This document shows, piece by piece, positions 41,620 to 64,000 of a stretch of 64,000 nt of DNA. The translations under genes and the position numbers were made by a program. The notes under the pieces are model-generated. The model was not told the origin of the DNA, made no database searches, and worked only from the letters and a program-made list of their open reading frames with translations. Where the stretch lies: the NCBI GenBank assembly GCA_038870595.1, contig JAVZJU010000002.1, forward strand, positions 1 through 64,000, in the 5' to 3' direction. Every line of letters begins with the position of its first letter. The first letter of the stretch is position 1. Source of the stretch: Candidatus Bathyarchaeia archaeon. Lineage in GTDB: Archaea > Thermoproteota > Bathyarchaeia > Bathyarchaeales > Bathycorpusculaceae.

Positions 41620-43671
41620 TTAAATTTTTGATGTTTTGAAAACTTTTTTCTTGGGAAAAGTTTTTGTTGCAGCTATTATGAGCGACGCCATCAACAGAGC
41701 CATCAGTAGCAGGTGGATTTGCTCAGACACCATACCTGACCCTTGAACTTTTACGACTGCATCGTAGTCTTCGAATACAAATTCTACGTAAATGTAAGTG
41801 TTTGTGTTGTCAGAGGTTATTTGGGGTGTGACTTCTACACCGTCTATGTAAACTTTCCAGCTGTCCCATATGAGATCTTTTGGAAGGGTTATGTTTACAT
41901 AAGCTGATGTGCCCGGAGCACCAGTGACTTGTAGAAATTCAATCCATGCGCCTGCAATGTTGTGGTTTATTGCGTTTGCAATTACTGATGTATTAGTGTG
42001 GGTTAAGATTGTGAAACCGAGCAGTTGATGGGCTACGGGGGAGACCAGCTTGTAAGTGTAAGTGGCGTTTTCTATCGTGAATGGTATGTCATTTTCTGCA
42101 GCGTTTAGTATAAATGTGTCCTCATACGGGTTGACCAAGCCCACTGTACATGTAGATTGAGGTGAAAGTGGTTGACGAATTATTTTTAGTTTTACTTGGC
42201 ATAGGACACCTGTGCCGTTAAACGTCCAATAGGGGTCGTTTATGTACGTGCAACCCCAGCTTACATAACCTGGACCAACATCTAGTGACGGAGTTATCAT
42301 TGCCCTGTTGGCACCAGCGAAAACGTGGTCTGATGGAAGAGATATTTCTGTGAAGTTTAGGAGTGTTGGGTCCCAGGTTAGATGGATCTGCCAGTTCTGC
42401 AAGTCCTCAACATCAACAACAGTGACATTGAAGGTTATTTCATCTCCCACTTTAGTCATGTTTGAGTAGTAGGTTGTTACTCCGTTGGCTGCCGTGACTC
42501 TGATGATGGCTGTGGGTGTTACCACTCTGACCGTGGCTGTTTTTTCTAATGTGGTACCTGCTGAGTCTGTCACCTTAACTTTTACATATTCAACGCCTTC
42601 GGTTGAGAAGGTGAAGGTTGCGGATGTCTGGTTTTCGTACGCCGTTTCTTCTATGTCGTTTCGGAACCATTGTATTTTATAAGGCGGCACTCCGCCTGAA
42701 ATTGTGGCAGTGAATGTTTTACTTCCACCAACATTAATGATAACCGTAGCTGGCATCAATTGTAATGATAATTCTGCAAGTTTCAGATAGGATGAAGCAT
42801 TTTTGCTAACCCCGACATAGTCGGTTACTTGGACTGTCACTTTATGAAGACCTGCCACTGTTATTGGGTAGCATTCCCAAGAAGTTTGGTTAAAGGCTTC
42901 TGTGACTTCTATTTCCGTGCCATTTGGCCATTGGAAGAACCATTGATATGTGTAGGGCAATGCTCCGTAAAGTGCTGTGGCTGTAAAGGTTTTGGTTTCG
43001 CCATAGTTCACTTTTATTGGGCTTGTATACGTGCCTAAGGGACTTATAGAAACCGTCAAATCGTCAATGTATGTGTAGGTTGCATCTTCCACCGTGAAGA
43101 GTATGTCGTATCCCGGTCCATTTAGTAGGAACGTGCTGTATCCGATTTCTGCTAAGGTGAGGTTGCAGGTTGCTGGGAAGGATGGTGGGGTTAAGATTTT
43201 TAATTTCACTTGGCATAGGACGCCTGTTCCGTTAAACGTCCAATAGGGGTCATTGATATATGTGCAGCCCCACATAACGTAGCCTGGACCAACATCTGGT
43301 GGTGGGGTTATCATAGATCTTGCTCCCGGAGTGCCTGGGGGTTGGATCGCTGAATCAATTGGGGCGAAAACGTGATCCCTAGGCAGATAAATGCTCGAGT
43401 ACTCAAGGAGTACTGGGTCCCAGGTTAGTTTAATCTGCCAGTTCTGCAAGTCCTCAACATCAACAACAGTTATGTTAACGATGAACGTGTCTCCTGGCTT
43501 AGTAGTGTTGGCGTAAAATGTGTTATTAACAGGTAAGACCACAATTTTTGTTCCGTCCTGCGCACTTGTTTGGGGCGTGAAGAGTGGAATCATGCCTAGC
43601 ATCAGAAAAGCAGAGATTAACATTGGAAAAACTTTCCTTATACTTTTATGTAAGTTCATCTGAATTTTCAC
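41620..43671 (-). CDS. Membrane-anchored scaffoldin-like protein with two cohesin-like modules
   Basis: Signal peptide. Two ~150-aa modules: PGDTFIVNITVVDVEDLQNWQIKLTWDPVLLEY...WGCTYINDPYWTFNGTGVLCQVKLKI, repeated at aa ~390-520. Two Ig-like PPYxYQWF domains. C-terminal TM plus KKK. Confidence 0.65.
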   Translation of the reverse strand: MKIQMNLHKSIRKVFPMLISAFLMLGMIPLFTPQTSAQDGTKIVVLPVNNTFYANTTKPGDTFIVNITVVDVEDLQNWQIKLTWDPVLLEYSSIYLPRDHVFAPIDSAIQPPGTPGARSMITPPPDVGPGYVMWGCTYINDPYWTFNGTGVLCQVKLKILTPPSFPATCNLTLAEIGYSTFLLNGPGYDILFTVEDATYTYIDDLTVSISPLGTYTSPIKVNYGETKTFTATALYGALPYTYQWFFQWPNGTEIEVTEAFNQTSWECYPITVAGLHKVTVQVTDYVGVSKNASSYLKLAELSLQLMPATVIINVGGSKTFTATISGGVPPYKIQWFRNDIEETAYENQTSATFTFSTEGVEYVKVKVTDSAGTTLEKTATVRVVTPTAIIRVTAANGVTTYYSNMTKVGDEITFNVTVVDVEDLQNWQIHLTWDPTLLNFTEISLPSDHVFAGANRAMITPSLDVGPGYVSWGCTYINDPYWTFNGTGVLCQVKLKIIRQPLSPQSTCTVGLVNPYEDTFILNAAENDIPFTIENATYTYKLVSPVAHQLLGFTILTHTNTSVIANAINHNIAGAWIEFLQVTGAPGTSAYVNITLPKDLIWDSWKVYIDGVEVTPQITSDNTNTYIYVEFVFEDYDAVVKVQGSGMVSEQIHLLLMALLMASLIIAATKTFPKKKVFKTSKI

Positions 43672-43726
43672 CTAGCAAACCTTTTTCATTCTATGCCATA
43701 TTTTAGCTTTACGGTTTAAAAATAGG

Positions 43727-45397
43727 CTATATAACTCTGTATCGCTCTTTTGGACTAGGCTCCTTTTCAGGTCTCTTCTTGTACCAGACAACAGTAACCC
43801 CGAGGGCTCCAAAAAAGGCTATAGCTGCATATAATTCCCAGCCTGTGCCGGATTCGCTTTGAGCTTGTATTACGGTTACATGTATGTCATGTGATATTGA
43901 TGAGTATAGTCCTTCGTCGTCGAAGACTATGAGGGTGACTGTATAGTCTCCTCCTTGTCCAGTATATGTAAATGTCGCTACTAGTTCTGTTGGCTTGGTT
44001 ATGTTGTAGGCTTGCATTTGGGTTTCTTCCATTTCTCCGTAGAAGTCCCATATGGCGTATACGATTTCTCCGTCTTCATCATACGTGTATCTTTCAGTTT
44101 CTGTGCCATATGCGTTGAAGATGACTTCTTGGTCTGGCATAGGTTGCAGTGGTGTCCATGTAAAGTTGACTATTGGGCGCTGTCCCACAAAGATTATTTT
44201 GCTTGTTGAATTGTAAAGTCCGTCGTTGTCAAAGGCTGTTAGGGTGACGTTGTAAAGGCTGTTTTTGGAGAGGGTGAACGTTACGTTTTCATCCGTCGTG
44301 GTTTCGTTCCAGAACTCAACGGGTACATAGTTTATTTTTACGCCTTTTGGCTTGAATTGTAGGCGGGTTAAGTTCCATAAGTATTGGGTGATGGTTCCAT
44401 CTGGGTCAAAGCTTCCTGTCGCGTTAAGCGTTATTGTTGCATTAGCCCCTATTGGTACGTAGGGGTTTTCAGGGTCGTAAGTGAAGCTTATCTGTGGGGG
44501 AATTCCAACAAAAATTACTTGCGTTTTTGAACTGTTTTGGTTTTCGTTGTCTGTCACCGTAAGGTTGACGTACTTTATTCCGTATGTTGTATATGTGTGA
44601 TTGACGCTTTGCTGGTTTGTTGTTGTGTTTGTTCCGTCTCCAAAGTCCCAAGTGTAGTTTGCAATATAGCCGTCTGGGTCGTAGCTTCCAGAAGCGTCAA
44701 AGGTCACTGGTTGGTTTGGTTTTGGGTATTGGGGCTGCCATGTGAAAGCCGCTATTGGCGGAGATTTAGCCCCATAAACTGTGACTTGGAAGGATTCGGA
44801 TGTAAACGGAATTTCAATTGAATCTGAGTTCCATAAGAAGGAGTCATCGTCATAGTCTGGGCTTCCTGTTGGAATTATGCTCAGCGTGAAGGTTCCTATT
44901 TTTATGGCTGTGAAGTTTATTTGGCAAAGTATTGCCTGAGAAGTTGTTACGGCGTCGTTCCAGTTGAGGAGGCTTGCGCCTAGAAAGACGTAGCCATAGC
45001 CTGGAGGAGCCTTTCGGGGTTGTTGATTATAGATCTCCGGTTGTACCTGCTGTATTTTTTTGTTGTAGAATACGAAGTTTGGGTTGTTTGTGGGTAGCCA
45101 TGCACCTGTACATTTAACTTTGCTATATTCGAAGCTTATTGCCACTTGAAAAGTAACTATGTTTTGTGTTAAACCCGTAAGTGTAACATTCACGGTGAAT
45201 GAATAGCCCCCTAACGGGATGGGAGTGGATTCGTTGCCCAATATGACGCTGTTCTCTCCAGTTTTTGAATCGATAATCCGGATTGTCCTCTCTTGAGCTT
45301 CTGCAAAAAATCTTAATTGGCTGGAAACGGTTAAAAGCATAATTTGACCTAATATCAAAATAATGAGAGCTTTGTTAAGTAATTTCACCATTTTCAC
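43727..45397 (-). CDS. Membrane-anchored surface protein: divergent cohesin-like N-domain + PKD domains + C-terminal TM
   Basis: N-terminal TM. FTVNVTLTGLTQNIVTFQVAISFEY...ILCQINFTAIK resembles the cohesin-like pattern. ANYTWDFGDGTNTTTNQQSVNHT PKD. C-terminal TM plus KKRPEK. Paralog of 52962..54506. Confidence 0.6.
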   Translation of the reverse strand: MKMVKLLNKALIILILGQIMLLTVSSQLRFFAEAQERTIRIIDSKTGENSVILGNESTPIPLGGYSFTVNVTLTGLTQNIVTFQVAISFEYSKVKCTGAWLPTNNPNFVFYNKKIQQVQPEIYNQQPRKAPPGYGYVFLGASLLNWNDAVTTSQAILCQINFTAIKIGTFTLSIIPTGSPDYDDDSFLWNSDSIEIPFTSESFQVTVYGAKSPPIAAFTWQPQYPKPNQPVTFDASGSYDPDGYIANYTWDFGDGTNTTTNQQSVNHTYTTYGIKYVNLTVTDNENQNSSKTQVIFVGIPPQISFTYDPENPYVPIGANATITLNATGSFDPDGTITQYLWNLTRLQFKPKGVKINYVPVEFWNETTTDENVTFTLSKNSLYNVTLTAFDNDGLYNSTSKIIFVGQRPIVNFTWTPLQPMPDQEVIFNAYGTETERYTYDEDGEIVYAIWDFYGEMEETQMQAYNITKPTELVATFTYTGQGGDYTVTLIVFDDEGLYSSISHDIHVTVIQAQSESGTGWELYAAIAFFGALGVTVVWYKKRPEKEPSPKERYRVI

Positions 45398-45495: not shown

Positions 45496-47685
45496 TTAGC
45501 AGCGTTTCATAAAGTTCATGCAGCATGTACCAATGTCTCGAAGGTCGATTCTCCCATCCCTGTTCAAGTCATAGTAGTGGTCCCACCTTGGATCACCTGG
45601 TTTTGCCCCGTAGCGGCTGCATACGTCGTTAATGTCCCGCATATCCACGACTCCATCGCCGTTAACGTCGCCCATGATTCTTATTTTGACTTTACCATCT
45701 TCAAGGGTGTTGTCTGACAAGTTGAATTCGTATGGTACTGGTCCAGCCAGAGCTGAGATTGTGTAATTGTGACAGTATGGAACATTCTTGGTGTCCCAAC
45801 TTATGATTATTGTTAATTCTTCGTTAGGCGGCAAGTCGTTAACTGTGACTGTTGGTCCGAGATTGCTGTCATAGTAGATTTTCACTTCAAAAGTTTCTGT
45901 TATGTTTCCCTTGTTTTTAACCGTCACAGTGATGTTAACTATCCAGCCTTGATAAGCGATATTCAAATCCGTGGACAAAGAGGTGACTGCTACATCCCTT
46001 ATTAATCCTATAAATATTCCGTGGTGGACTTCATGAGTTACTGGCTCATTATTGATGTTTAGAAGCAGCGTATCGGTGAGGTTTATGGGGCTTACACCCA
46101 AAGCTACAACGACGAACTCGACCCTCATTACGGGTTTAGGCTCGTATGTTGTTATTCCTTGGCGATATGTTATGTTTGCCCAGATATAGCCAGCCTCATC
46201 GTCTATCAAAATTTTCTTGAGAGGCGTTTGTCCGGATATGGGTAAAACTGCCACATTAATCTCCAGTATTACTGATGGAATATATGTCAAATTGAATATG
46301 CATGTTTTAAGGTTTTCAACATCATCCACCGTCACATTTATTGTAAATGTTGTTCCAGGCAAGTATTCCGGACCGCTGACTTCGCTTGGGTCAATTGCCA
46401 GCGTAGCGAGTAGAACATTATTGAAATATCCGTCTTCACTTGTCGCCGGAATAGGATTGCCTAACGGGTCTCGCAAATCAACATCAGCAAGTTTCAGGAT
46501 CGTCCGCCCTAAGTCTAAGACTTGAAATGTCACCGTTGCAAGTTTTCCGTTTCCCTCCGCCACATCTGATGGGGAAGTTAGTTGGCAACTCATGTAAACA
46601 CGACCATGAGTGGAGTTGTAATCATTCTCGATTGTAAAGGTGAAGCTTGTTGGACCTATCGATGATAAGAAGTCTCCTTCATACACGTCTGTGGCTGATA
46701 GTAGAGTTCTGTTAAAGAATATTGCTGCTTCCCAAGAATGGAGGGTTACAGCATCCCTTATCAAAAGGCTTATGTTAAATGCTTTCCCAGGCGTAAGGGA
46801 CGGGTCAACAATACTATGCGGGTCTATATAAACAACAGGTCCACCAGTCCTTCGGACGATTGCCGTGGCGTTAGCTTTCGCACTTGCCTTGTCTGTAACT
46901 TTCACTGTTACTTTATGGTCGCCCAACAATGTTATTGGCGGAGTTGTCCAAACCGTTGAGTTTTCAGCGTTTTTGTCCTCTATTTCCGTGCCATTAGGAT
47001 ATCTAAAATACCATTGATACTTGTAGGGGGTTGGACCGTTTTTGGCTGTTGCCGTGAAAGTTACTTGACCGCCTGGATCAACTACAACAGGTCCAGGAGG
47101 GCTTAAAGTAACTTTCAGCTCATCAATGTACGTGTAGGTTGCATCTTCCACCGTGAAGGGTATGTCGTATCCAGGTCCATTTATTAAGAACGTGTTGTAT
47201 CCGATTTCTGCCAAGGCGAGGTTGCATGTTGCTGGGAAGGACGGAGGCGATAGGATTTTCAGTTTTACTTGGCATAGAGTCCCTGTGCCGTTAAATGTCC
47301 AGTATGGCTCATTAATATATGTGCAGCCCCAAATCACGTAGCCGGGGCCTGTTTCTGGCGGTGGAGTTATCATTGCTTTTCCAGAACCGGCGAAGACGTG
47401 GTCTGGTGGAAGGGAAACCGACACGTATGCCAGTAGTGCTGGATCCCATGTTAATTTTATTTGCCAATTTTGCAAGTCAACAACGTCAACAACAGTTATG
47501 TTAACTGTGAATGTGGATCCTGGAAGGGTCACATTTGCATAAAATTTGTTTGTGGCGGGCAAAACCTTCAATTTTGTGCTGCCAGGTCCAGATTTTACTG
47601 GGATTGCTGGTAACAAGGCAAGAGTCAATGTTAAAAGAATTAAAGCTGTTGAGAGCTTGGCTCCCCTTTTAGCATTTAGAAGCAT
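45496..47685 (-). CDS. Adaptor scaffoldin-like protein: three cohesin-like modules + CARDB-like domain + C-terminal type-I-like dockerin
   Basis: Signal peptide. Cohesin-like 1 (GSTFTVNITVVDVVDLQNWQIKLTWDPALL...WGCTYINEPYWTFNGTG), 2 (PGKAFNISLLIRDAVTLHSWEAAIFF) and 3 (PGTTFTINVTVDDVENLKTCIFNLTY). Dockerin DVNGDGVVDMRD...DLNRDGRIDLRD. Confidence 0.7.
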   Translation of the reverse strand: MLLNAKRGAKLSTALILLTLTLALLPAIPVKSGPGSTKLKVLPATNKFYANVTLPGSTFTVNITVVDVVDLQNWQIKLTWDPALLAYVSVSLPPDHVFAGSGKAMITPPPETGPGYVIWGCTYINEPYWTFNGTGTLCQVKLKILSPPSFPATCNLALAEIGYNTFLINGPGYDIPFTVEDATYTYIDELKVTLSPPGPVVVDPGGQVTFTATAKNGPTPYKYQWYFRYPNGTEIEDKNAENSTVWTTPPITLLGDHKVTVKVTDKASAKANATAIVRRTGGPVVYIDPHSIVDPSLTPGKAFNISLLIRDAVTLHSWEAAIFFNRTLLSATDVYEGDFLSSIGPTSFTFTIENDYNSTHGRVYMSCQLTSPSDVAEGNGKLATVTFQVLDLGRTILKLADVDLRDPLGNPIPATSEDGYFNNVLLATLAIDPSEVSGPEYLPGTTFTINVTVDDVENLKTCIFNLTYIPSVILEINVAVLPISGQTPLKKILIDDEAGYIWANITYRQGITTYEPKPVMRVEFVVVALGVSPINLTDTLLLNINNEPVTHEVHHGIFIGLIRDVAVTSLSTDLNIAYQGWIVNITVTVKNKGNITETFEVKIYYDSNLGPTVTVNDLPPNEELTIIISWDTKNVPYCHNYTISALAGPVPYEFNLSDNTLEDGKVKIRIMGDVNGDGVVDMRDINDVCSRYGAKPGDPRWDHYYDLNRDGRIDLRDIGTCCMNFMKRC

Positions 47686-47767: not shown

Positions 47768-50700
47768 CTAGTAATATTTGGCAGTCTTGCCATAGTTGCC
47801 ACAGGCGATGCCGATGTCACGCATATCTACTTTGCCATCATTATTCACATCTTTATTGGGGTCCCAGTTGGGCTTTGACGGGTTTGTTCCGAACTTGTTA
47901 CATATCGCCCCCACATCGCGCATATCCACTTTGCCCTCTGGAACTCCTTGAGCTATGCTTGTTACATCTCCTGAGATTACTATTAGAACCGAACATTTGA
48001 TGTAAAGGTTGTTTGAGATGTTGCCTTCTCCTAAAACCGGCACTGCATAAGCACTAACAGTATAATTTCCATATGCCAAGTTTGTTGTGTCCCAAGATAA
48101 ACTGGTAATTATAGATTGCCCAGGCAGTATCGTTTGGATAAATTTTGTTCCTATGGTCTGGTTGGCATACGTGTTATTGGACCAGTAAACGATTATTTGA
48201 ACATTTGACTCTGTAAAGTTACCGTTATTTTTTGTCGTTACGTAAATTAGGGTTCCATAATCTCTACCTATATATTTTTTCATGGGAATTGGTTTACTTA
48301 GGTTCACGTTTGGTGTGCTAGCTGTAACATTTTCTATACTTATGTCAGCGTATTCTACTCTGATTTGGCAGGATTTACTATTGTCAGACGGGTTTTCATC
48401 CACAATTGGTGGTTGGAGAGTGGCGCTAACAGATATTATGTAATTTCCAGCAGACAGACTTGTCGTGTCTAAATAGATTGTGAGGGTTTGCTGTTTTCCC
48501 CTTCCAAGGTTTATAGAAGTTGTGTAGAAGTTTGTGGTATTGTATGATGCTGTAACACTTATTGTTTCAGTGAATGATCCTTTATTCCATATAGTTGCGT
48601 TGATTGTTGCTGTTTCACCTTTTTTGACCGGCGTCTTTAGAGGTATGACTTTTAAGACGGCTACATCATGGTTTGAGCCTTGTATCGCATAGAGTTTGCC
48701 ATCTTTGGAGGTTACGTATATGATGTCATTTAGTACAGCTGGTGATGAGTCAATTATTCCTCCAGTTTGGTAGCTCCACCAAATTTCGCCACTTTCTTCT
48801 TCTATTGCGTAAAGCCTTCCTGTTGTCGTTCCCACTATAACTTTGCGTTCGGCCACTAGAGGAGATGACCATTTTATTGGTCCAATTTCTTTACTCCAAA
48901 GTAAGTTGCCAGTCAACGCGTTAAGGGCATATAGTTTACCGTCTGTTGAGCCTACAAAAACTGTATTGTCAGCTATCGCTGGTGAAGAGTATATCTCGCT
49001 GTTCGTCGTTAAGTTCCATAAAATTGTGCCAGTTTGGGCGTCTAAAGCATAGATTTTCTTGTCTCTTGAACCTGTGAAAACTCTATCGTTGGCAAACGAT
49101 GGGGATGAGTAGATACCGACTCCTGGTGCTAGGTTTTTCCTCCATAGAATTCCCCCAGTTATTTCATTTAATGCGTATATACTGCCATTTTGGGTTGCCA
49201 CGAACACCTTGCCGCTTGCTGCAGCGGGAGACGTGTAGACCGCTCCGTCGAGGGTGCTTGTCCAGATAGTTGTTCCGTTTATATAAAAGGCGTAGACTTT
49301 TCCATCTGTGGAACCGATAAATACTTTATTACCATAGATGACTGGAGAGGAATAGACTGGACCTCCAGTTGTTATGCTATATTTTACGCTACCATTTGTT
49401 GCATTTACTGCATATACAAGTCCATTTTCTGATCCTATGAAGAGTAAGTTGTCTGTGTAGGCTGGGGAGGAGTAGATTTTGTATCCTGGGGCTGGTGTTG
49501 TTTTCCATATGAGCGCTCCGTTTGTTGCATTAAAAGCGTATAGTGTTCCGTTTATTGACCCTATGAAAACTTTATTTCCAACAATTGCGGGGGAGGATTG
49601 CATCCATTGTTCGGTGCTTGTTGACCCTATTGTTTTTTGCCATTTGGTTGAGTTAGCTGTCGATGCTAACGAGGAGGATGAGCCTTTGTGTTTGGGGTCG
49701 TGGCGGAACATGGGCCAAGCTTCTGTTACTATTACTAGTCTTTCAGTTGAGTTGTATATTCCTTTATTGTTGGTTACTGTTAATTTGACCGTGTAGTATC
49801 CGCCCATGTCGTATATGTGGGTAACTATCTGGCCTTTCGCTGTGGTTCCGTCGCCAAATTGCCATGTATAGTCTATGATGGTTCCGGTTGGGTCGTAACT
49901 TGCTGAGCCGTCGAAGGTGACTGTTTGGCAGACCATTGGATTACTTGGAGAATATGTAAACTGTGGAACGGGCCCTAGAACTAAGAAGCTTTTTATGTCA
50001 ATCGCTGTTGAAATTTGATATTCGGTTGTTGCATATATCACATATTTGTCAGCAGGTATATCCGTTGCTGGGAGTTTAAATGTTACATTAAAGTATTGGG
50101 GTTGCGGTGGCATTGAGGGAGTTGTTGTGCTTATATAGAATTTTGCCTTTTTTTCTGGACAATATGGGGCTCCTAGATTTTTTGGGTAGTCCTTGAATAG
50201 GCTTACTGATACTTGTGCTTCGCCAGTTGGCGCGTGACTTGGTATTGGCATCGAGGAAAGAAGCTTTACGGTTTGACCTCCTTCAATTGTAAAACCTGAC
50301 GTAAAGAATGCTGTTAGGGGTGTGTTATCAGAGCATTGCACATAAACGGCTATTAATACATACCTGTTTACTACGTCGAAGTTTTTTATTGTTATATTGA
50401 GGTAGGCCGTGGTTCCACGGCTAAAAAGGTTCTTTGGTGTTCCTTGTGAGTCGCAGGTGTACATGTCTAAGATTTGTACGCGCCAGTATCTGCCTGAAAC
50501 GTCGCCTGTTTCAACCGTTCTTAAGACAAAGGGGTTTCCGTTTGGGAAGTCTACCTGGATGGCAGCTATTGTGTCGGTTTTTAGTGCTCCGTCCAAGGTT
50601 ACGTTTCCTGTTATTATTACTGTTTCTCCTGCGTTGTAGGTTGGTTTGTTTGTTGTTATGTTTATGTCTAGTATGTAGGCTTTTGCTTGTTGTGTTAATA

Positions 50701-50794
50701 TGCTTATGTGAAGGGTTAGAATTATTAATATTAAGAACGTTGTGATTGTGAGTTTTTTGATTTGGTTTTTTGGGGATGAATTCATAAGCTTCAC
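47768..50794 (-). CDS. Secreted PKD + PQQ-like beta-propeller + CARDB-like protein with C-terminal dockerin
   Basis: YTWQFGDGTTAKG...KLTVTNNKG PKD. Eight or more repeats of the G.LYA.NA.NG...W type (PQQ-like blades). Dockerin GKVDMRD...DVNNDGKVDMRD. Confidence 0.7.
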   Translation of the reverse strand: MKLMNSSPKNQIKKLTITTFLILIILTLHISILTQQAKAYILDINITTNKPTYNAGETVIITGNVTLDGALKTDTIAAIQVDFPNGNPFVLRTVETGDVSGRYWRVQILDMYTCDSQGTPKNLFSRGTTAYLNITIKNFDVVNRYVLIAVYVQCSDNTPLTAFFTSGFTIEGGQTVKLLSSMPIPSHAPTGEAQVSVSLFKDYPKNLGAPYCPEKKAKFYISTTTPSMPPQPQYFNVTFKLPATDIPADKYVIYATTEYQISTAIDIKSFLVLGPVPQFTYSPSNPMVCQTVTFDGSASYDPTGTIIDYTWQFGDGTTAKGQIVTHIYDMGGYYTVKLTVTNNKGIYNSTERLVIVTEAWPMFRHDPKHKGSSSSLASTANSTKWQKTIGSTSTEQWMQSSPAIVGNKVFIGSINGTLYAFNATNGALIWKTTPAPGYKIYSSPAYTDNLLFIGSENGLVYAVNATNGSVKYSITTGGPVYSSPVIYGNKVFIGSTDGKVYAFYINGTTIWTSTLDGAVYTSPAAASGKVFVATQNGSIYALNEITGGILWRKNLAPGVGIYSSPSFANDRVFTGSRDKKIYALDAQTGTILWNLTTNSEIYSSPAIADNTVFVGSTDGKLYALNALTGNLLWSKEIGPIKWSSPLVAERKVIVGTTTGRLYAIEEESGEIWWSYQTGGIIDSSPAVLNDIIYVTSKDGKLYAIQGSNHDVAVLKVIPLKTPVKKGETATINATIWNKGSFTETISVTASYNTTNFYTTSINLGRGKQQTLTIYLDTTSLSAGNYIISVSATLQPPIVDENPSDNSKSCQIRVEYADISIENVTASTPNVNLSKPIPMKKYIGRDYGTLIYVTTKNNGNFTESNVQIIVYWSNNTYANQTIGTKFIQTILPGQSIITSLSWDTTNLAYGNYTVSAYAVPVLGEGNISNNLYIKCSVLIVISGDVTSIAQGVPEGKVDMRDVGAICNKFGTNPSKPNWDPNKDVNNDGKVDMRDIGIACGNYGKTAKYY

Positions 50795-54538: not shown

Positions 54539-55723
54539 CTATTTGCTTACTGCGTAGCAAGCAACAAAATGCCCGTCACCAACATCAACCAGCTTAGGTT
54601 CTGAACTCTTACAAACATCCATGGCTTTGGGACATCTCGGATGGAATCTACAACCGGGAGGGGGATTAACAGGACTCGGAACCTCACCAGTAATGGGTGG
54701 ACGCTCCCTTCTCTTTGTTGGATCTGGAATTGGAATAGCTGCAAACAACGCTTGTGCATAAGGATGCAGAGGCTCTTTGTAGAGCGTTTCAGTTTTTGCT
54801 AGCTCCACAATTTTACCAAGATACATAACAGCTACTCGGCGACTTATACATTCAACAACGCTTAAGTCGTGGCTTACAAACATGTAGGTGATGCCTAGCC
54901 TCTTTTGAAGATCTTGGAATAAGTCTAGAAGTTGGGCTCTAACTGAAACATCGACAGATGATGTGGGCTCATCTAAAACAATGAATGCAGGACGTGTGAT
55001 AATTGCCCTTGCAACGGCAATCCTTTGCCTTTGACCTCCGCTGAACTCATGTGGATACCTATAAAGATGCTTTTCAGTTAAGCCCACGTTTTCAAGCGCC
55101 TCAACAACCATATCATAGACTTTTCGTCCAGTGGCTATTCCCTGTGCAACGATTGGCTCAGCGACTATGTCCTTAACAAGCATTCTGGGATCCAGCGATG
55201 TTGTTGGGTCCTGGTAGACTATTTGCATAAATCTCCTCAACTTTCTCAATGATGAGAATGAGGCTTTCGTTAAGTCGTATTGCCTATGACGGGGGATTTT
55301 GTCCCGCAAATAGGAAATTAGTTCCTGTTCTTTCATGTTCCTAACTTTGGTAACTTCATCTTTGGATAGATATTTCATGCCATAGCTTTTTATAGCATTC
55401 TTAAACTTTTCAGAAACCGCTTTAGCGCGCTTTGGATCTGAAGTTTTTGCTTCCTCCTCAAGCCTTTCAATTTCCAGAAATTCGTAATTGGGTGCATTAA
55501 ATATTATTTTTCCATCGTTTGGTTTGTAAAGCCTTAGGATAGTTTTTCCCAGCGTTGTTTTTCCACATCCAGATTCTCCCACTACTCCGAAGGTTTCGCC
55601 TTTAAATATTTTGAAGGACACTCCGTCAACTGCTTTAACTTCGGCTACTTTCCTTTTCAAAACGCCGCCGAGGATGGGGAAGTATTTTTTAAGATTCTCA
55701 ATTTCTAGAAGGGTAGTTTCCAC
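54539..55723 (-). CDS. Oligopeptide/dipeptide ABC transporter ATPase (OppF/DppF-like)
   Basis: GESGCGKTT Walker A, LSGGQRQR signature, C-terminal oligopeptide-type extension with [12 protein letters not shown]. Confidence 0.85.
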
Positions 55724-55725
55724 TT

Positions 55726-56889
55726 TTATTCCTCCACTTTAGTATATAAGTGGCATGCAACTTCGTGTCCTTTTTCTACTTCAACAAGATTCGGCTTAAC
55801 TTTTCGGCATATTTCCATAGCGTATGCGCATCTCTCATGAAATCTGCATCCAGGAGGCGGGTTGATCAGGCTTGGAACAGTGCCTGGTATAGAGACAAAG
55901 GGGTGGCCTGGTCTCGGTATTGACTGTAGTAAAGCTTGCGCATAGGGGTGTAGGGGTTTCTTGAAGAATGTCATAACATCTGCAACTTCAACAACGTTTC
56001 CAGCATACATGACTGCAACTCTTTCGCATAGCTCTGCAACCACGCCCAAGTCGTGCGTCACATATAATATTGATGAGCCAAATTTGTCTCTAAGTTCCTT
56101 TATAAGATGTAATATTTGCATCTGCACCGTAACATCGAGGTTTGTGGTGGGCTCGTCGGCTATCAATAATGTTGGATTGCATGTTAACGCCATTGCAATT
56201 ACAACTCTTTGGGCCATGCCGCCGCTTAATTCGTGGGGGTACATGTCAACAACCCTTTCAGGGTCGGGGATTCTGAGAATCCTGAGAAGCTCAACTGTTT
56301 CTTTTCTAACAACCTGTTGAATTCTTTTCTTGAATCCTCTTAATAGAGGGATTTTTGAGGCCATTCTAACGGTTAGTGCTTTGGGGTTTCGTAACATTTT
56401 ATTTAGCAACGATAAGTGGCGTTTGTAAAGCCATCTCTTCGTTCCCCTAGCGGTTTTAAGGCTTTCTTCAACGTTGTGTATGGCTTTTTTTGTGATTTCT
56501 TCCATTCGGTGGTGATAGAAAACTTCAGCGATTTGATCGCCTACTGTGTAGACTGGGTTTAATGCTGCTCTTGGTTCCTGGAATATCATTGAGATGTATC
56601 TGCCTCTTATTTTTAGAAGTTCGCTGGTTTTCAGATGCAGCAGGTCAAGCTCCTTTTCCTCTGTATTGAATTTTATACTACCCTTTTCTATGCTTCCGGG
56701 CGATATTACCATCGCTAGCATTGATAGGCTTGTTACGCTTTTTCCACATCCTGTTTCGCCCACTAGTCCTAGGACTTCGCCTTTTTTGATGTAAAGTTTT
56801 ACTCCGTCAAGGGCTTTTACAATTCCGTCGTAGGTGTAGAAGTTTATGTACAGATCCCTTATTTCAGCGATGGTTTCTTTTTCTTCCAA
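55726..56889 (-). CDS. Oligopeptide/dipeptide ABC transporter ATPase (OppD/DppD-like)
   Basis: GETGCGKS Walker A, LSGGMAQR signature, C-terminal [11 protein letters not shown]. Confidence 0.85.
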
Positions 56890-56894
56890 GGCTT

Positions 56895-57860
56895 TTATCT
56901 CCTCCTATACAATGGATCCAATATGTCCCTGAAGGCGTCGCCTAACAAGTTCCATCCCAAGCAGAACAAGGTTATGAATAGCCCCGGATACATAAAAGTC
57001 CACCAATACTTAAATCCATACGTGGCCCAGTTTATTGACATATTGATTAGCTGTCCCCAGTCGGCATATCTTGGCGGAGCTCCGAGGCCGAGGAAACTTA
57101 GAGCTGCCGCAAAGAGCACTATGGAACCAAAGTCGAGGGAAGCCACAATTATTACCGGGTATATGGCGTTTGGAAGTATATGCCGCGTTATTATTCTAAG
57201 GTCTGATGCTCCTGACGCTTTTGCGGCTTCAATGTAGTCTTCTGTTCTTACTCTTAAAACTTCGCCTCTAATAAGCCTTGTATATGAGGGCCATCCAACA
57301 AGTATGATTGAAAGGATTGCAGCGTCTATTCTTGTCCATTGGCCGGTTCTTGTCAGGGTTACGATTAAAGCCATCGTTAATATGAGCCCGGGAAATGCTA
57401 GGATTATGTCTGTGAAGCGCATTATTATTTCGTCTATTATTCCGCCATAGTATCCCGCAATTGTTCCTAAGGTTATTCCTATTGCGAGGATTGCGGGGAT
57501 TATTAGTAGGCCTAGTCTGAATGCGTAGATTGTTCCCCATATGCAGCCGTAGTACAAGTTTATGTTTAATGGTGTTATTCCGAAGGGGTACTCTGAACTT
57601 GGTGGTTGCGGAAGCTGATATATTTTGTTTTCGCGTAACGGTGGGATTTCAAAGGGATCTCTTAGAGGTGTTCCAAAATCGGGATGAATTGGGGGTGCTA
57701 AAACTGGCGCTAGTATGGCTACGAAAGCAAAGAAAATCACCAGTCCTAACCCTATGAGGGATAACGGAGTTTCGATTATCCTTTTCAGTGTGAATTTTAA
57801 CTCTTTTATTCTGGGTTGCATCCTTCTCTTGAATTCTGAAACCTTTTTTTCTTTGGCCAT
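56895..57860 (-). CDS. ABC transporter permease (OppC/DppC-like)
   Basis: Six TM segments and an EAA-like loop (AAKASGASDLRII). Confidence 0.8.
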   Translation of the reverse strand: MAKEKKVSEFKRRMQPRIKELKFTLKRIIETPLSLIGLGLVIFFAFVAILAPVLAPPIHPDFGTPLRDPFEIPPLRENKIYQLPQPPSSEYPFGITPLNINLYYGCIWGTIYAFRLGLLIIPAILAIGITLGTIAGYYGGIIDEIIMRFTDIILAFPGLILTMALIVTLTRTGQWTRIDAAILSIILVGWPSYTRLIRGEVLRVRTEDYIEAAKASGASDLRIITRHILPNAIYPVIIVASLDFGSIVLFAAALSFLGLGAPPRYADWGQLINMSINWATYGFKYWWTFMYPGLFITLFCLGWNLLGDAFRDILDPLYRRR

Positions 57861-57862
57861 CT

Positions 57863-58903
57863 TTACCCCAACCTTATTCTTGGATCTATATAGGCGTAAA
57901 GAATGTCTACTATCAAGTTGGATATGACGAAAATTATGGCTGAAAAGAAGGCGTATGCTATTACAATAGGTACATCCATAGCTATAGCCGCGTAGGCAGC
58001 CCAGTTTCCTATTCCGCCAAAACGGAAAACAGTTTCTGTTATTGTTAGTCCTGTTAACATGCCGCTTACGAGGAGCCCTGAAATTGTTACGACTGGGATT
58101 AGGGCGTTTCTTCTTGCATGTTTGTAGATTACTTCTTTTCTTGATAGTCCTTTTGCCCTTGCTGCAACAATGTATGTTTTGCTTAATGCTTCGAGCATGC
58201 TTGACCTCGTTACTCTAACCATTGTGGCGGATTGGATGAAGACTAAAACGGTAACCGGTAATATTAGGTGCTTTAACGCGTCTAGGAAGGTTGCAAAGTC
58301 TCCATTTATGAGGGAGTCTATTGTTATTAGTCCTGTATATTCTCGAATTTGCCCGGTGCTGATTCCGAGTAAGTACTTTCCAATGTTTGTTAGCCTTCCA
58401 GTAGTTGTCCATCTTAACTGGGCTACAAATATGCTGATTAGTATGACTCCGAAGAAGAAGGATGGGAGGGAAGTCCCCAATATTGAGGCTACTCTTGAAA
58501 CGTGGTCTGGGAGTTTGTCACGGTTTGCGGCTGAAACTGTGCCAAGCCATATTCCGAAAAACACTATTATTGGAGCGCTATATAGCACTATTTCTAGTGT
58601 TGCCGGAAACCTTTTGGCAAAGCCTTCTAAAACTGGTTCGCCGCCGTATATCTCTGAGTATCCAAAATTTCCCTGAAACATTTGGGTAATCCAGTTGTAG
58701 AATTGGACAAAAACAGATTCGTTTAAACCGTACTGTTTTATGACGATGTCTATTTGGCGGAACTGCTTAGGGTCTGTTATATAAATTGATGCTCTTGCTT
58801 CTGGGGGGATAAGCTGCATCACGGCGAAAATTAGAAGTATGACACCAAATAGTACAGGGATTAAAAGTAACAGTCTACGGATAATGTATTCCCTTAAGCC
58901 CAT
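57863..58903 (-). CDS. ABC transporter permease (OppB/DppB-like)
   Basis: Six TM segments and the EAA-like motif EALSKTYIVAARAKG. Confidence 0.8.
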   Translation of the reverse strand: MGLREYIIRRLLLLIPVLFGVILLIFAVMQLIPPEARASIYITDPKQFRQIDIVIKQYGLNESVFVQFYNWITQMFQGNFGYSEIYGGEPVLEGFAKRFPATLEIVLYSAPIIVFFGIWLGTVSAANRDKLPDHVSRVASILGTSLPSFFFGVILISIFVAQLRWTTTGRLTNIGKYLLGISTGQIREYTGLITIDSLINGDFATFLDALKHLILPVTVLVFIQSATMVRVTRSSMLEALSKTYIVAARAKGLSRKEVIYKHARRNALIPVVTISGLLVSGMLTGLTITETVFRFGGIGNWAAYAAIAMDVPIVIAYAFFSAIIFVISNLIVDILYAYIDPRIRLG

Positions 58904-59045: not shown

Positions 59046-61673
59046 TTATGGTTGGGTTGTATGTCCGAAGTGTTTGCTGGCTAAGCCTATGTCTCTCATG
59101 TCGATTTTGCGGTCTCCGTAGATGTCTGAGCCTCCGCAGCCATATGTGCCTGGGGCCCATCTAGGATCGTATGGTGGTGTTGCGGCTGGGTCTGGTGCTT
59201 TTGCTCCGAAGTGTTTGGATATGTAGCCTATGTCTCTCATGTTGCATACTCCGTCAGGTATGCCTACTGTGGGGCCTGTTATGTCAGCCCAGCATGCAGG
59301 GCTTGGTTGTGGAACTGTTGGATTTACAGCTTTGTATTGTTTGTAGAAATACGCTGACGGGTATAGGCCGTTGTAGTACCAGCCTTTCAGCCAGTACTTT
59401 TGCCATCTTCTTCCTGTGGTTTGGATTATTGGGAAGCTTGGGCAGTCGGCGATGTAGATGTCGTCTAGGTCTGCGTAGTATGTGGCTCTTTGTGGGCCGT
59501 CTGGTGTTTTAACTGCTATGTCTATTAGTTGGTCTTTGTTTAGGTGTGTTCTTGGGCCGAGTGTTCCGCACCATCCGTTCCAAGCTGTGTAGTTTTGGTA
59601 GTAGCTGAAGTCTCCGTAGCTGTGCATGTATGGGCGGACCCAGTTGTCGGCGTCTGCAAAGTCTGCCAGCCAGCCGATTAAGTATAATGGCATTTCATAG
59701 GCTTCCAGCATTTCTAGGTATGTTGCCCAGTCTGGTCCTTGAACTTCAATTATGAAGCTTTTGCCGTACTGGCTGTTTATGGCGTCGAAGGCTGCTTTTA
59801 TGTATTCGCATGCCAGCCTTCTCGGGTCGTTGCCGCTGTTGTAGTAGATGATCATTTTGAAGCCGCCCCAATCCCAGACGCTCTTTGTTTCGCCGTCTTG
59901 TGTGAACATGGCTTGTTGAAGTTCAGTCTTTATCTTTTCTAGGTCGTAGTTGTAGGTCCATGGTGGGTCTGGCTTCTTTGTATAGTAGTCTGGCACTAGA
60001 CCGTAGATTAGTGGTGTTTCTCTGCATATGCCCTCGTCCATCCAGACGTCGTGTATGTATTTGCCGTGGTCGAATGCGTAGGCGAAGGCCCTCCTAGTGT
60101 GGGTGTTGTTGAAGAAGTCTGTTGGTATGCCGTCTGGGAACCTTCCGCTGTATATGGCTGGCGATTCTGGACTGATGGTGAATGTGAAGAATACTGCGTC
60201 CATGGCTAGTACTGGCGATATGTTCTTTATCGTTATTATTGCAGGGTCTATTGTTATCATTCTAGCCGGGTCGTTGGGGTCTAGGAGCTCCATCATGTTG
60301 GCTCTTGGCACGGCACAGACGTCCAGCTGGCATGCCAAGAAGGCTGTTTTTCTGGTGGTCCAGTCTGCAATGTATTCTATGTCTACGTATTCGAGGTAGC
60401 CTGGCAGGCGGACCAGTTCACCTGTGCTCTGAACCGTGTAGAAGGGTGCTGGCCAGCCTCTCCAGTAGTTGGGGTTCCTCTGGAGCACCACTAGGTTTTG
60501 GGCTGCGCTTGCAACCACAACTCTGTAGGGGCCTGTACCGGCATAGTTTTCAGGCTTTATAGACTGGATTGGTGAGACGTAGCCGAAGGCTATGCAGTGG
60601 CGCCATGACTCAAACCAGTCTGGTATGCCGTTTTCTGCCACTGAGCCTGTATAGCGTCCGTCGTCGCTGAAGAGTTCATCGTCCCAGCATCCCTTGCCCA
60701 TACACCAGTCTTTGTCCAATATTGATGCCCATGTTTGGCTCATGATTTGTTTGAAGGCTGCATCTGGGAAGGTTATTCCCAGGTTGAAGCGTACAATTGG
60801 TGGGTCTGGGTCTGTGCTGACAATTTCAATGGCGCTATCTATCAGGAATGAGAGTTCCAGCGCATCTTCTGGGTTGCCTGTGTCCCAGAAGTCGCTGTTC
60901 ATTTGGTCGAAGAAGGGTTTGTAGAACATCCACATGGGGCTGCCGTACTGGTCTTGGACAAGTCCACGCCTGAAGGAGTATAAAACGTCGCCGATGTCGA
61001 ATTGACCCACAACGTTGCCATCTTTATCATAGAAGAATATCGCAGGGTCTGTTCTTAATCGGAAGTCGTAGTAGAAGCGGTGCGCCACTATCTTTCCAAT
61101 GTTGGCATCGACGCTGATGGTTTGCCATGTGCGGATTTTAGTATTTCCACCCTCTACCCCTCTTACGTAGATGACATCAACTGGGCCGAAAACTCCGTCT
61201 GGGTTGTTGTCAACCCAGCCGACAATTTCAAAGGCTGAGTTGTTCAAATATATACCGGTAGGGTCTGCTGGAATTGGCACAGTATCGCTCATGAACGTAG
61301 CAATTATTTCTTGGCGGTTTGGAACGTTTACGGCTAAGCGTGGTCTGAACTCCCAATACTGCTCTTCAACATCCCATACAATGCCCGGATACAACGGGTT
61401 GACAACATCGCCGCCCATCTCAATCAAAGTATCATAAACATTGAAAAGCAGCTCGCCGCTGGCCGTATCATAAGCCCTCACAGGGTCAGCTCGCCTGGGA
61501 CCCCAAGCAATAGTCCCTTCATATATCGTTGTCGGATCATAATTTTCTGGCTGTGGTGGACCGGTAGCAAATACAGGAGCAAACACTGGAATTAGAAGTG
61601 CAGCTGTAGCAACTAATGCGAACAAACTTGCCTTCTTCATATCTCTCCTTCTCCCATTTTCCAATTTCCGCAA
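59046..61673 (-). CDS. Family-5 ABC substrate-binding protein (Opp/Dpp/Nik type), unusually long, with C-terminal dockerin
   Basis: Signal peptide (MKKASLFALVATAALL), SBP_5-like core (LQRNPNYWRGW), several insertions giving 875 aa, and a C-terminal PDGVCNMRDIGYISKHFG...DIYGDRKIDMRDIGLASKHFG dockerin. First gene of the opp operon. Confidence 0.75.
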   Translation of the reverse strand: MRKLENGRRRDMKKASLFALVATAALLIPVFAPVFATGPPQPENYDPTTIYEGTIAWGPRRADPVRAYDTASGELLFNVYDTLIEMGGDVVNPLYPGIVWDVEEQYWEFRPRLAVNVPNRQEIIATFMSDTVPIPADPTGIYLNNSAFEIVGWVDNNPDGVFGPVDVIYVRGVEGGNTKIRTWQTISVDANIGKIVAHRFYYDFRLRTDPAIFFYDKDGNVVGQFDIGDVLYSFRRGLVQDQYGSPMWMFYKPFFDQMNSDFWDTGNPEDALELSFLIDSAIEIVSTDPDPPIVRFNLGITFPDAAFKQIMSQTWASILDKDWCMGKGCWDDELFSDDGRYTGSVAENGIPDWFESWRHCIAFGYVSPIQSIKPENYAGTGPYRVVVASAAQNLVVLQRNPNYWRGWPAPFYTVQSTGELVRLPGYLEYVDIEYIADWTTRKTAFLACQLDVCAVPRANMMELLDPNDPARMITIDPAIITIKNISPVLAMDAVFFTFTISPESPAIYSGRFPDGIPTDFFNNTHTRRAFAYAFDHGKYIHDVWMDEGICRETPLIYGLVPDYYTKKPDPPWTYNYDLEKIKTELQQAMFTQDGETKSVWDWGGFKMIIYYNSGNDPRRLACEYIKAAFDAINSQYGKSFIIEVQGPDWATYLEMLEAYEMPLYLIGWLADFADADNWVRPYMHSYGDFSYYQNYTAWNGWCGTLGPRTHLNKDQLIDIAVKTPDGPQRATYYADLDDIYIADCPSFPIIQTTGRRWQKYWLKGWYYNGLYPSAYFYKQYKAVNPTVPQPSPACWADITGPTVGIPDGVCNMRDIGYISKHFGAKAPDPAATPPYDPRWAPGTYGCGGSDIYGDRKIDMRDIGLASKHFGHTTQP

Positions 61674-62069: not shown

Positions 62070-62132
62070 AAATTTATAAACAAAAGTGCACATAATTAAT
62101 TTAGGGAAACTTCTAGGAAGAACGCAAGGAAA

Positions 62133-62630: not shown

Positions 62631-62632
62631 AA

Positions 62633-63079
62633 CTAAAAACCCACAAAATGCAGAATCTTAAATAAAACACCCAACCCGAAAGATGCAAGACCAGCACGCA
62701 TAAGAAGAACACTCAACCAAAGATACGGACGCTCTGTAGATAAAATCACTTTAAAACCCAAAACAGCCCCTTTAAAAATTTCTGCTACAATTCGATAAGA
62801 TTCAACGGTTAAAAATCCAAAAAGAGTGATCGAAGCCGTTACAAAAACAATAGCTAAGCAAATCAGAATTGTGCCAACACCACTAAACGAACGCAAACCA
62901 CCGGCAAAGAAACCAAGTTGTATAAGTAAACCGAAAGCCGAAAAAACTATCCCGATAAAAAAGCTCGCAGCGAAAAAAAGAGAGCCGAACCCATTATAAA
63001 TGGACAAGCTTACGATGAGAAGTATCACACCTATCAAAAAAACAATCTTTCCAACATTATCCATAAGCCAATCCAGCAT
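62633..63079 (-). CDS. Integral membrane protein (4 TM)
   Basis: Hydrophobic segments. Confidence 0.4.
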   Translation of the reverse strand: MLDWLMDNVGKIVFLIGVILLIVSLSIYNGFGSLFFAASFFIGIVFSAFGLLIQLGFFAGGLRSFSGVGTILICLAIVFVTASITLFGFLTVESYRIVAEIFKGAVLGFKVILSTERPYLWLSVLLMRAGLASFGLGVLFKILHFVGF

Positions 63080-63156
63080 ACACTCAACCAGATAAAAAAA
63101 TACAAGACCATACTTAAATTTTTAACTAACAAAAGCTAAGTCACAGAACGTTTATA

Positions 63157-63594
63157 TTGTCGCAGAATAGAATTAAAATAAAGTTCGGAATAACAATGAA
63201 ACGCTACTGGTCCAATAGAAACATCGATCTGAAAGCTCTAAAAGAAGAGGTAATCGAACTCTTAAAAGAAGATTACTTTGACATAGATACACATGAAATG
63301 GAAGACGCCTATCAAATAATTGCAAAATCCTCCCCAAATTATAACCTAGACGGACATGTAATAATTACGCTGCAAGGGAAACCAGAAGAAGTTTCAATCG
63401 AAATAGAGCTCCAGAGGAAAAGACAAAGAATCTTTACAGCCCCCCTCCTGCTAACTTTCCTAGGAGGTGGATACTGGCTCTCACAACGCCTAAAATCCGA
63501 CGAGGAATGGCTAGAATTTAAAAGAAGGTTCTGGGAACGGATAGACGTAATTATAACAAATTTAGGCAGCTCGGTTAATCAACATACCACATAA
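63157..63594 (+). CDS. Hypothetical protein with one TM segment
   Basis: ORF. Confidence 0.35.
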   Translation: MSQNRIKIKFGITMKRYWSNRNIDLKALKEEVIELLKEDYFDIDTHEMEDAYQIIAKSSPNYNLDGHVIITLQGKPEEVSIEIELQRKRQRIFTAPLLLTFLGGGYWLSQRLKSDEEWLEFKRRFWERIDVIITNLGSSVNQHTT

Positions 63595-63756
63595 AGTTTT
63601 GATTCTCCCAAAAAACCAAAAGCCTACACGCCAACATAAACTTGGCCCTCTTCAAAAAGCCTCATTTAAAATAACTACGTAGCCCAGGCCGCGCCAAAAA
63701 GCGACATTTCAAAACGTAAAAAAGAAAGGTCGGTAATGGAATGGAAATGGAACGCC

Positions 63757-64000
63757 CTACATGCCCTTCTTACCAAAGTTTAGAATTGCTATGCCAACGT
63801 CGCGCATATTAATTATCCCATCAGCGTCAAGGTCGCATTGAGGCTTATACCGCTCATCACCCTCCTTAGCGTTAAAAACACGCACCACTTCGCCGATGTC
63901 TCTCATATTAACTATGCCATCACCGTTAACGTCTGGACTTCTAACATCGCTTCGCATGCAAATGTAGAGGTCACATGTAGCATATGGCGGTCCAAGGTAG
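63757..64000 (-). CDS. Dockerin-containing protein, C-terminal fragment (gene continues beyond the window end)
   Basis: The reading frame stays open to nt 64000. DVNGDGIVNMRDIG...DLDADGIINMRDVG forms two Ca-binding dockerin loops. Confidence 0.65.
   Translation of the reverse strand, partial: YLGPPYATCDLYICMRSDVRSPDVNGDGIVNMRDIGEVVRVFNAKEGDERYKPQCDLDADGIINMRDVGIAILNFGKKGM

Follow-up and report, generated by a model that had tools for sequence, protein, structure and literature searches.

A cohesin-dockerin gene cluster coupled to an Opp/Dpp/Nik-type ABC importer in Candidatus Bathyarchaeia: a probable non-cellulosomal surface-display system

Introduction

What do cohesins and dockerins do in an archaeal gene cluster that shows no glycoside hydrolase? 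The question is raised by positions 41,620 to 64,000 of a 64,000-nucleotide stretch of contig JAVZJU010000002.1 (Candidatus Bathyarchaeia archaeon, GenBank assembly GCA_038870595.1); this whole stretch is called the window below. An initial annotation, made from the sequence and its translations, had described the region as a cohesin-dockerin surface system without visible enzymes, and the fold, profile and synteny data presented here support that description. The reading that we favor, with a probability of about 0.6, is that the cluster encodes a non-cellulosomal cohesin-dockerin surface-display system, genetically coupled to an ATP-binding cassette (ABC) importer of the Opp/Dpp/Nik type and tethering the solute-binding protein (SBP) together with accessory binders.

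In archaea, which have no outer membrane, the SBPs of ABC importers must be tethered. To our knowledge, a dockerin tether has been proposed for archaea from the domain lists of anaerobic methanotrophic (ANME) archaea, and has never been tested.

Results and Discussion

The Importer and Its Conserved Neighbors

The genes between 41,620 and 64,000 form two co-directional arrays on the minus strand, E-D-C-B-A (with intergenic gaps of 55-98 bp) and K-OppB-OppC-OppD-OppF, and the plus-strand gene F lies between them. Proteins A-F and K each begin with a signal-peptide-like hydrophobic segment.

The organizing center of the cluster is an Opp/Dpp/Nik-type ABC importer (54539-58903, minus strand). It is complete, comprising the permeases OppB (57863-58903) and OppC (56895-57860) and the ATPases OppD (55726-56889) and OppF (54539-55723), all on the minus strand, next to the SBP gene, K. 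The best NCBIfam matches are dipeptide, oligopeptide and nickel subunits, and the ATPases match the oligo_HPY model (TIGR01727, 99.7 bits). A family-5 SBP, two BPD_transp_1 permeases and two oligo_HPY ATPases encoded together place the importer in the PepT (Opp/Dpp/Nik) group; all subunits score below the NCBIfam equivalog cutoffs, so that the substrate (peptides, oligosaccharides or metal) is not assignable.

Protein K (59046-61673, minus strand, 875 aa) is a family-5 SBP (SBP_bac_5, 120.9 bits) with a signal peptide and a C-terminal dockerin; neither a lipobox nor a transmembrane (TM) helix was found in it. All 120 K homologues in the matches listed carry a dockerin, which lies at the extreme C-terminus in 119, and a C-terminal TM helix was seen in none.

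Protein E (50881-52839, minus strand, 652 aa) is the conserved importer neighbor. Its family comprises 153 matches, of which about 100 are full length; nearly all of the source names are Bathyarchaeia. E stands beside an Opp-type ABC importer in 11 of 11 distinct Bathyarchaeia contexts (the window, L002/L013, L004, L007, L008, L009, L011, L012, L015, L016 and L017), and further cohesin or dockerin genes come next wherever the contig extends. The usual order is SBP, OppBCDF, E, a small dockerin protein (320-345 aa, MG2-like/PYCPE with a dockerin), an adaptor (~630 aa, cohesin/CARDB/dockerin), a PKD protein with a TM anchor, and further anchored cohesin proteins, often closing with a NosD-like beta-helix protein. 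The importer, the dockerin-bearing SBP and the E-family cohesin protein are the conserved core of the cluster. The initial annotation had named PKD/propeller and substrate-binding proteins as the cargo, which fits D and K, but it had missed both the complete importer and this core.

This conservation bears on a rival explanation, namely that the locus encodes a cell-cell or cell-substrate adhesion or matrix system, displaying PKD, CARDB, Ig-like, MG-like and propeller modules, to which the importer is a mere neighbor. The domain content is indeed typical of adhesins, and the same role has been proposed for ANME dockerin/cohesin proteins (PMC5244752; PMC9012536). However, importer, dockerin-bearing SBP and E are strictly conserved together over long range (11/11), and the K family keeps its dockerin in every one of the matches listed (120/120). 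Both observations speak for transport as a component of the function, and we regard an adhesion system with an incidental importer as unlikely.

As to the host, the window is archaeal, with rpoB/rpoA at 18.5-25.7 kb, and its sole relatives in the genome collection are metagenome-assembled genomes (MAGs) of Candidatus Bathyarchaeia. Parts of the window are matched at 98.7-99.5% identity by two contigs of isolate DRTY-6_201912_bins_76, another MAG shows 79% identity with synteny across 17.5 kb, and a protein from an NCBI MAG (P0278) is 100% identical to K.

Cohesin Modules

Nine cohesin-like modules were delimited in five secreted proteins (two in A, one in B, three in C, two in E and one in F), in line with the initial count of at least five such proteins. 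The motif first used to recognize them, ..WQIKLTWDP..WGCTYINDPYWTFNGTG, occurs literally in four copies in three proteins (twice in A, once each in C and E), whereas B and F lack it and are related by homology only. These four copies, termed type A, are 53-77% identical to one another.

Both modules of A (A_m1, 43060-43563; A_m2, 42040-42519; minus strand) were placed by type-A alignment, and C_m1 (47116-47589) and E_m1 (52216-52716) lie on the same strand. In hhalign comparisons with type A, the minus-strand modules C_m2 (46414-46854) and C_m3 (46000-46413) gave 98.3% and 95.7%, respectively. E_m2 (51640-52215, minus strand) was linked to E_m1 through 38-sequence profiles (hhalign 98.6%, E 5e-16). 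The N-terminal module shared by B (44762-45310, minus strand; divergent) and F (53043-53576, plus strand; Pfam Cohesin 23.6 bits) is homologous to type A despite lacking the literal motif (hhalign 97.1%, E 4.9e-11). A profile search of the PDB with this B/F module returned no match, and its cohesin link consists of hhalign and hidden Markov model (HMM) cross-hits. Altogether, hhalign or HMM links join all nine modules.

When the four-copy profile was compared with the PDB, 16 of 16 matches were cohesins (best 3l8q, E 7.5e-5). An exhaustive search of 1.84 billion representatives with the type-A profile retrieved 1411 proteins at E <= 1e-3, including a Pseudobacteroides multi-cohesin scaffoldin. 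A word-indexed homologue search with an isolated 160-aa module gave no matches; the exhaustive profile and full-length queries were needed. Structure prediction, which the initial annotation had suggested as a check, pointed the same way: an AlphaFold2 model of the type-A module (pLDDT 74.8) retrieved only cohesins among its top 50 Foldseek matches in the PDB (probability 1.0, TM-score 0.56-0.72), the A. fulgidus cohesin 2xdh being one of them. This is the fold expected of a cohesin, a flattened beta-sandwich with nine strands and roughly 140-170 aa.

Against the Pfam Cohesin model (PF00963, gathering score 24.1 bits), whole protein C scores 39.5 bits and is the sole window protein above the gathering score. 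As isolated modules, E_m1, E_m2 and B_m1 gave no Pfam Cohesin match; 29 of 38 E-family members match it at E <= 0.01, and a few members of the family already bear the NCBI label "cohesin domain-containing protein". Pfam alone is thus equivocal on cohesin membership, and the profile evidence fills the gap. The identification of the repeated modules as cohesins is supported by fold, by profile searches and by profile-profile links.

Related modules were also seen in metagenomic proteins from elsewhere. Some K-family SBPs, such as P0365 (1129 aa), also have a Pfam Cohesin domain, and P0146 (1479 aa), called a C1A cysteine protease by a source, has a type-A-like cohesin module. Cohesins linked to SBPs and to enzymes therefore exist outside this cluster.

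Dockerins

Duplicated dockerin segments were found at the ends of four open reading frames (ORFs): C, D, K and one that is cut by the window edge. The initial annotation had called all four canonical; four there are, but only those of C and the edge ORF have canonical calcium loops in both repeats, and the edge ORF is incomplete. A dockerin consists of two segments of ~22 residues in tandem, each with an EF-hand-like calcium loop and a helix; the Pfam Dockerin_1 cutoff (PF00404) is 22.9 bits. The dockerin of C (45499-45681, minus strand) scores 35.5 bits when isolated and 29.8 in the whole protein, and that of the edge ORF (63757-64000, minus strand, leaving the window; dockerin from 63757) scores 36.8 bits, both loops being canonical in each. 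The dockerin of D (47771-47980, minus strand; 25.8 bits isolated) has a 6-residue insertion in loop 1 and a canonical loop 2. That of K (59049-59291, minus strand) is degenerate: its loop 1 has the same insertion as D, its loop 2 reads D-I-Y-G-D-R, and its score is 12.1 bits. The K tail is nonetheless homologous to the D dockerin (37% identity, E 1e-10).

The Pfam matches proposed at the outset were thus obtained in part, with Cohesin for whole C and Dockerin_1 for C, D and the edge ORF, but not for single cohesin modules or for K. Cohesin and dockerin profiles run against the 194 window ORFs of >=60 aa found no matches beyond the cluster genes.

For the DNA past position 64,000, we used as a proxy the 82%-related contig L013. 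There the counterpart of the edge ORF is an 80-aa Dockerin_1 ORF that lacks a signal peptide; before it come ORFs of 121 and 129 aa in other frames, which resemble propeller fragments, and an IS110 transposase gene lies beside them. Because the homologous stretch is split across frames, the edge ORF may be a gene remnant or pseudogene. Immediately beyond the dockerin-only ORF, the proxy region (L013 1-6600, past the window end) also encodes a CARDB-like protein of 336 aa that bears a long-loop dockerin, as well as the IS110-family transposase and several HEPN/nucleotidyltransferase and PIN toxin-antitoxin genes. From this gene content, the window end is probably the border of a variable region.

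Recognition Positions

In cellulosomes, positions 10 and 11 of each repeat are established determinants of dockerin specificity (PMC8063739), and positions 17, 18 and 22 contribute too (PMC3413522). In the Bathyarchaeia clusters, positions 10-11 are alike in both repeats; they vary between genome groups and are common to the SBP, small-dockerin-protein and adaptor dockerins within one genome. The window dockerins of C, D and K have M/L-R at these positions, as does the edge ORF. The consensus is M-R in the window and L004, M-K/I/L in L016, M/L-K in L012 and L007, G-V/Q in L008 and L009, and I-F/Y in L011 and L015. Over the whole dockerin, identity is 53% within a genome across carriers versus 42% for the same carrier between genomes, a difference that is modest and confounded by phylogeny. 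These comparisons are evidence that the dockerins may have been selected for, or homogenized around, a common genome-specific partner surface.

The same comparisons speak against the idea that the cohesin-like modules are structural beta-sandwiches only, which dockerin-like tails do not bind and which co-occur with them through the shared ancestry of surface proteins. That the window modules singly fall below the Pfam Cohesin cutoff and that the calcium loops of K are degenerate would fit such a view. Yet the window's cohesin and dockerin genes all lie in one cluster, the recognition positions are common within a genome across unrelated carriers, and K homologues retain the dockerin throughout the matches listed (120/120). 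We consider purely structural modules very improbable.

The shared residues also bear on the order of assembly. We tried to derive a hierarchy from dockerin subtypes (the D/K insertion versus the canonical C and edge ORF), and no tiers could be deduced, the recognition positions being identical. Since C, D and K carry the same recognition residues, separate specificity tiers (type I/II) are not evident, docking probably follows a single genome-specific code and no set of tiers, and the hierarchical anchor-adaptor-cargo layout put forward initially is a reading of domain architecture only.

Anchors, Adaptor and Cargo

Protein A (41620-43671, minus strand, 683 aa) is a putative membrane anchor with two cohesin sockets. 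A signal peptide, A_m1, two Ig-like domains (with a Pfam Ig_3 match), A_m2 and a stalk domain are followed by a C-terminal TM helix (41647-41721, minus strand, from hydropathy) and a basic tail. B (43727-45397, minus strand, 556 aa) and its paralogue F (52962-54506, plus strand, 514 aa; 42% identity) are further putative anchors, in which a signal peptide and a cohesin-like module precede three or four PKD domains in B and three in F. F ends with a strong C-terminal TM helix (54393-54452, plus strand, from hydropathy) and a basic tail. The weak C-terminal helix of B, followed by KKRPEKE, lies under the 1.6 hydropathy threshold, and the anchor was read from the tail sequence. Hydrophobic helix and basic tail thus point to three membrane-anchored cohesin proteins, one more than first counted.

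Protein C (45496-47685, minus strand, 729 aa) is the putative adaptor and, as predicted initially, combines three cohesins with a dockerin (signal peptide, C_m1, an Ig/PKD-like domain, C_m2, C_m3, CARDB, dockerin). Protein D (47768-50794, minus strand, 1008 aa), part of the cargo, consists of a signal peptide, an N-terminal beta-sandwich region with a 'PYCPE' module (49970-50683, minus strand), PKD, an 8-bladed BamB/PQQ-like propeller (48665-49717, minus strand; NCBIfam BamB 225.7 bits, below cutoff), two CARDB domains and the dockerin. It is an enlarged form of the relatives' small dockerin protein. We also considered D as a PQQ-dependent dehydrogenase and rejected this, the propeller being BamB-like and far below all PQQ-enzyme cutoffs in NCBIfam.

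In E, a signal peptide, E_m1 and E_m2 precede an MG-like beta-sandwich (51286-51639, minus strand) and a 'PYCPE' module of ~130 aa with the conserved PYCPE motif (50884-51285, minus strand). This last module recurs in D residues 67-186 (hhalign 99.8%, E 6e-29). Neither a TM helix nor a dockerin was found in E. An E-like protein in a relative (L006 396-2099), with two cohesins and 49% identity to E residues 40-406, ends instead in CARDB and a dockerin; this variant lacks the MG-like/PYCPE end, from which it follows that E-type proteins have a modular build and that a variant may itself dock.

When the cluster genes and the genes next to them were scanned with Pfam, NCBIfam and profiles, no glycoside hydrolase and no carbohydrate-binding module (CBM) turned up, nor did any glycoside hydrolase, polysaccharide lyase or carbohydrate esterase family match in the cluster. 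The cluster proteins gave no S-layer homology (SLH) or LPXTG matches.

The possibility that these are the scaffolds, anchors and product-uptake genes of a cellulosome-like complex degrading protein or polysaccharide, with the dockerin-bearing enzymes encoded elsewhere in the genome, has to be weighed here. Multi-cohesin proteins and an adaptor belong to such an architecture, and the sequence seen is 64 kb of a genome. The type-A profile also matches P0146, the source-named C1A family cysteine protease with a cohesin module mentioned above. NosD/CASH-type right-handed beta-helix proteins, which are conserved neighbors of the cluster (U3, see below, and eight relatives), might be taken for its enzymes, but they have C-terminal anchors of their own and are without dockerins. 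No recognizable dockerin-bearing hydrolase occurs in any of the 11 conserved contexts, where the recurrent dockerin carriers are the SBP, the MG2-like/PYCPE protein and the adaptor, and no scaffold bears a CBM. On balance, a degradative complex appears improbable.

Comparison with Known Systems

With bacterial cellulosomes (Clostridium thermocellum CipA/SdbA/OlpB; Acetivibrio cellulolyticus ScaA/ScaB) the cluster shares the cohesin beta-sandwich, the duplicated dockerin with positions 10-11 symmetric in both repeats, multi-cohesin proteins, an adaptor with both module types, and surface anchoring. It differs in having neither dockerin-bearing carbohydrate-active enzymes (CAZymes) nor a CBM, in anchors that are C-terminal TM helices rather than SLH or sortase-dependent, in a cargo made of a transporter SBP and non-catalytic binding modules, and in that distinct type I/II tiers are not evident. 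Within the 64-kb window, the cluster is not a cellulosome by the usual marks, as dockerin CAZymes, a CBM-bearing scaffoldin and SLH or sortase anchoring are all missing.

The Archaeoglobus fulgidus cohesin/dockerin proteins (2xdh) likewise have no link to cellulose degradation. That archaeon is known for just a few single modules; sequence identity is only 11-12%, and the cluster described here combines an importer with nine cohesins and at least four dockerins. In membrane-tethered SBPs of archaea and Gram-positive bacteria (held by a lipobox or a TM anchor), as is proposed here, the importer's SBP is kept at the surface without an outer membrane. K differs in having no lipobox or TM helix, a non-covalent dockerin being its only candidate tether.

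The closest likeness is to ANME archaea. From domain annotation, ANME proteins that combine a dockerin with up to five cohesins have been listed, as have dockerins on OppA/NikA and TroA binding proteins (Chadwick et al. 2022, PMC9012536; Timmers et al. 2017, PMC5244752). Attachment of transporters to the cell exterior has been suggested for ANME (PMC13452462). Both systems are archaeal and non-cellulolytic, combine a dockerin and several cohesins in one protein, and place dockerins on OppA/NikA-type SBPs. The impression that such modules are sparse in archaea, given in the initial annotation, is consequently outdated, as dockerin-multicohesin and dockerin-SBP proteins had already been reported from ANME archaea (PMC9012536; PMC13452462). 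The differences are that the ANME hosts are methanotrophic and assigned to the phylum Halobacterota (PMC9012536), whereas ours belongs to Bathyarchaeia; that the genes here form one compact syntenic cluster around the importer in all 11 contexts; and that a dedicated E family (cohesin-cohesin-MG-like-PYCPE) and TM-anchored cohesin proteins are present. Cluster-level organization of this kind is not described in the accessible portions of PMC9012536 and PMC5244752, and a search of the literature library used returned no description of cohesin-dockerin genes in Bathyarchaeia. What is new here is the lineage, together with an unusually complete and conserved cluster; the kind of system is already known from ANME.

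Proposed Mechanism

A working model can be built on these data. After secretion, dockerins would insert into cohesins. The anchors would be A, B and F, which their C-terminal helices would fix in the membrane, and C, with three cohesins and one dockerin, would multiply the docking sites. K, D and other dockerin proteins would thereby be kept at the cell surface near the permease, and for K the dockerin tether would replace the lipid or TM anchor on which archaeal SBPs normally depend, the cell having no outer membrane. E, with two cohesins and always beside the importer, would most likely be a dedicated docking partner or cross-linker for K. One genome-specific code would probably govern docking.

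Several points weigh against the model. Cohesin-dockerin docking, including which module pairs with which, is predicted from sequence. Single window modules score only 15-24 bits, below the Pfam Cohesin gathering score, and the K dockerin fails the Pfam model, its degenerate loops making calcium-dependent folding uncertain. As E lacks both an anchor and a dockerin, the model leaves the retention of the K-E core unexplained, and an S-layer alone might retain an unanchored SBP. Gene conversion, in place of selection for binding, could account in part for the within-genome sharing of the code. Finally, our view covers 64 kb of the genome, and dockerin-bearing enzymes are possible elsewhere.

Flanking Surface Proteins and Other Window Genes

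Two secreted NosD/right-handed beta-helix (CASH-type) proteins, each ending in a PEF motif, a TM helix and a basic tail, are encoded at 39553-40833 (plus strand; U3) and 826-1965 (minus strand). The U3 tail scores 23.2 bits against the TIGR03024 PEF-CTERM model (cutoff 23 bits), at the cutoff, implying archaeosortase-type sorting; an archaeosortase gene was not seen in the window. Homologues of NosD type flank the cluster in L002, L004, L006, L009, L011, L012, L016 and L017. Of all the genes at the locus, these neighbors may come closest to an enzyme or adhesin component.

The cohesin anchors of relatives end in (I/V)PE(F/Q/L), a TM helix and a basic tail, which looks PEF-CTERM-like by eye, the HMM giving these tails no score (L015 13913-14572; L008 15941-16651; L009 10622-11296; L011 15050-16552; L012 19328-20323; L004 9887-11590; L017 10738-12783). 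The tail of protein A is a degenerate PEF-CTERM-like version (…VSEQIHLLL…). The TIGR03024 model left the tails of A, B, F and U1 unmatched, and A, B and F are thus unconfirmed as PEF-CTERM substrates.

At lower coordinates than the region, positions 36414-39473 (minus strand) encode a TM-anchored protein of 1019 aa in which four PKD domains are combined with InlB B-repeat-like domains and Ig-like repeats, and two small membrane proteins are encoded at 35290-36357 and 40842-41342 (both minus strand). In L002, L004 and L010 the three genes keep their synteny with the cluster, which means that a conserved surface-protein island starts near 35.3 kb, outside 41,620-64,000.

Elsewhere in the window, RNA polymerase subunit A (18540-22361, minus strand) is one 1273-aa ORF and not separate A' and A'' genes; unsplit rpoA occurs in some TACK-group archaea. 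In a 346-aa protein (10458-11498, minus strand), a proline/alanine-rich linker is followed by three double-zinc-ribbon motifs (CPKC…FCSNCG) in tandem at the C-terminus.

Implications

About 20 kb hold the candidate partners, namely nine cohesins, three complete dockerins and an importer, and at least 10 relatives with differing recognition residues provide natural variants. The purpose of archaeal cohesins and dockerins thereby becomes directly testable as a small binding matrix. The isolate names of the closest MAGs suggest a hot-spring origin; should this prove correct, the cluster may also offer thermostable, orthogonal cohesin-dockerin pairs for designer assemblies.

The finding extends such systems to Bathyarchaeia, an abundant and uncultured group in which the uptake of substrates is ecologically interesting. 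A broader proposal, which we advance tentatively and at somewhat less than even odds, is that of a Bathyarchaeia-wide family of Opp-type importers in which the covalent or TM tether of the SBP would be replaced by a dockerin plugging into the co-inherited E family and membrane-anchored cohesins, with a genome-specific code at positions 10-11 common to the dockerins of a cell. If true, this would be a distinct, lineage-wide way to build an extracellular SBP "antenna" around a permease, and a natural case of co-evolving cohesin-dockerin specificity in a thermophilic archaeon.

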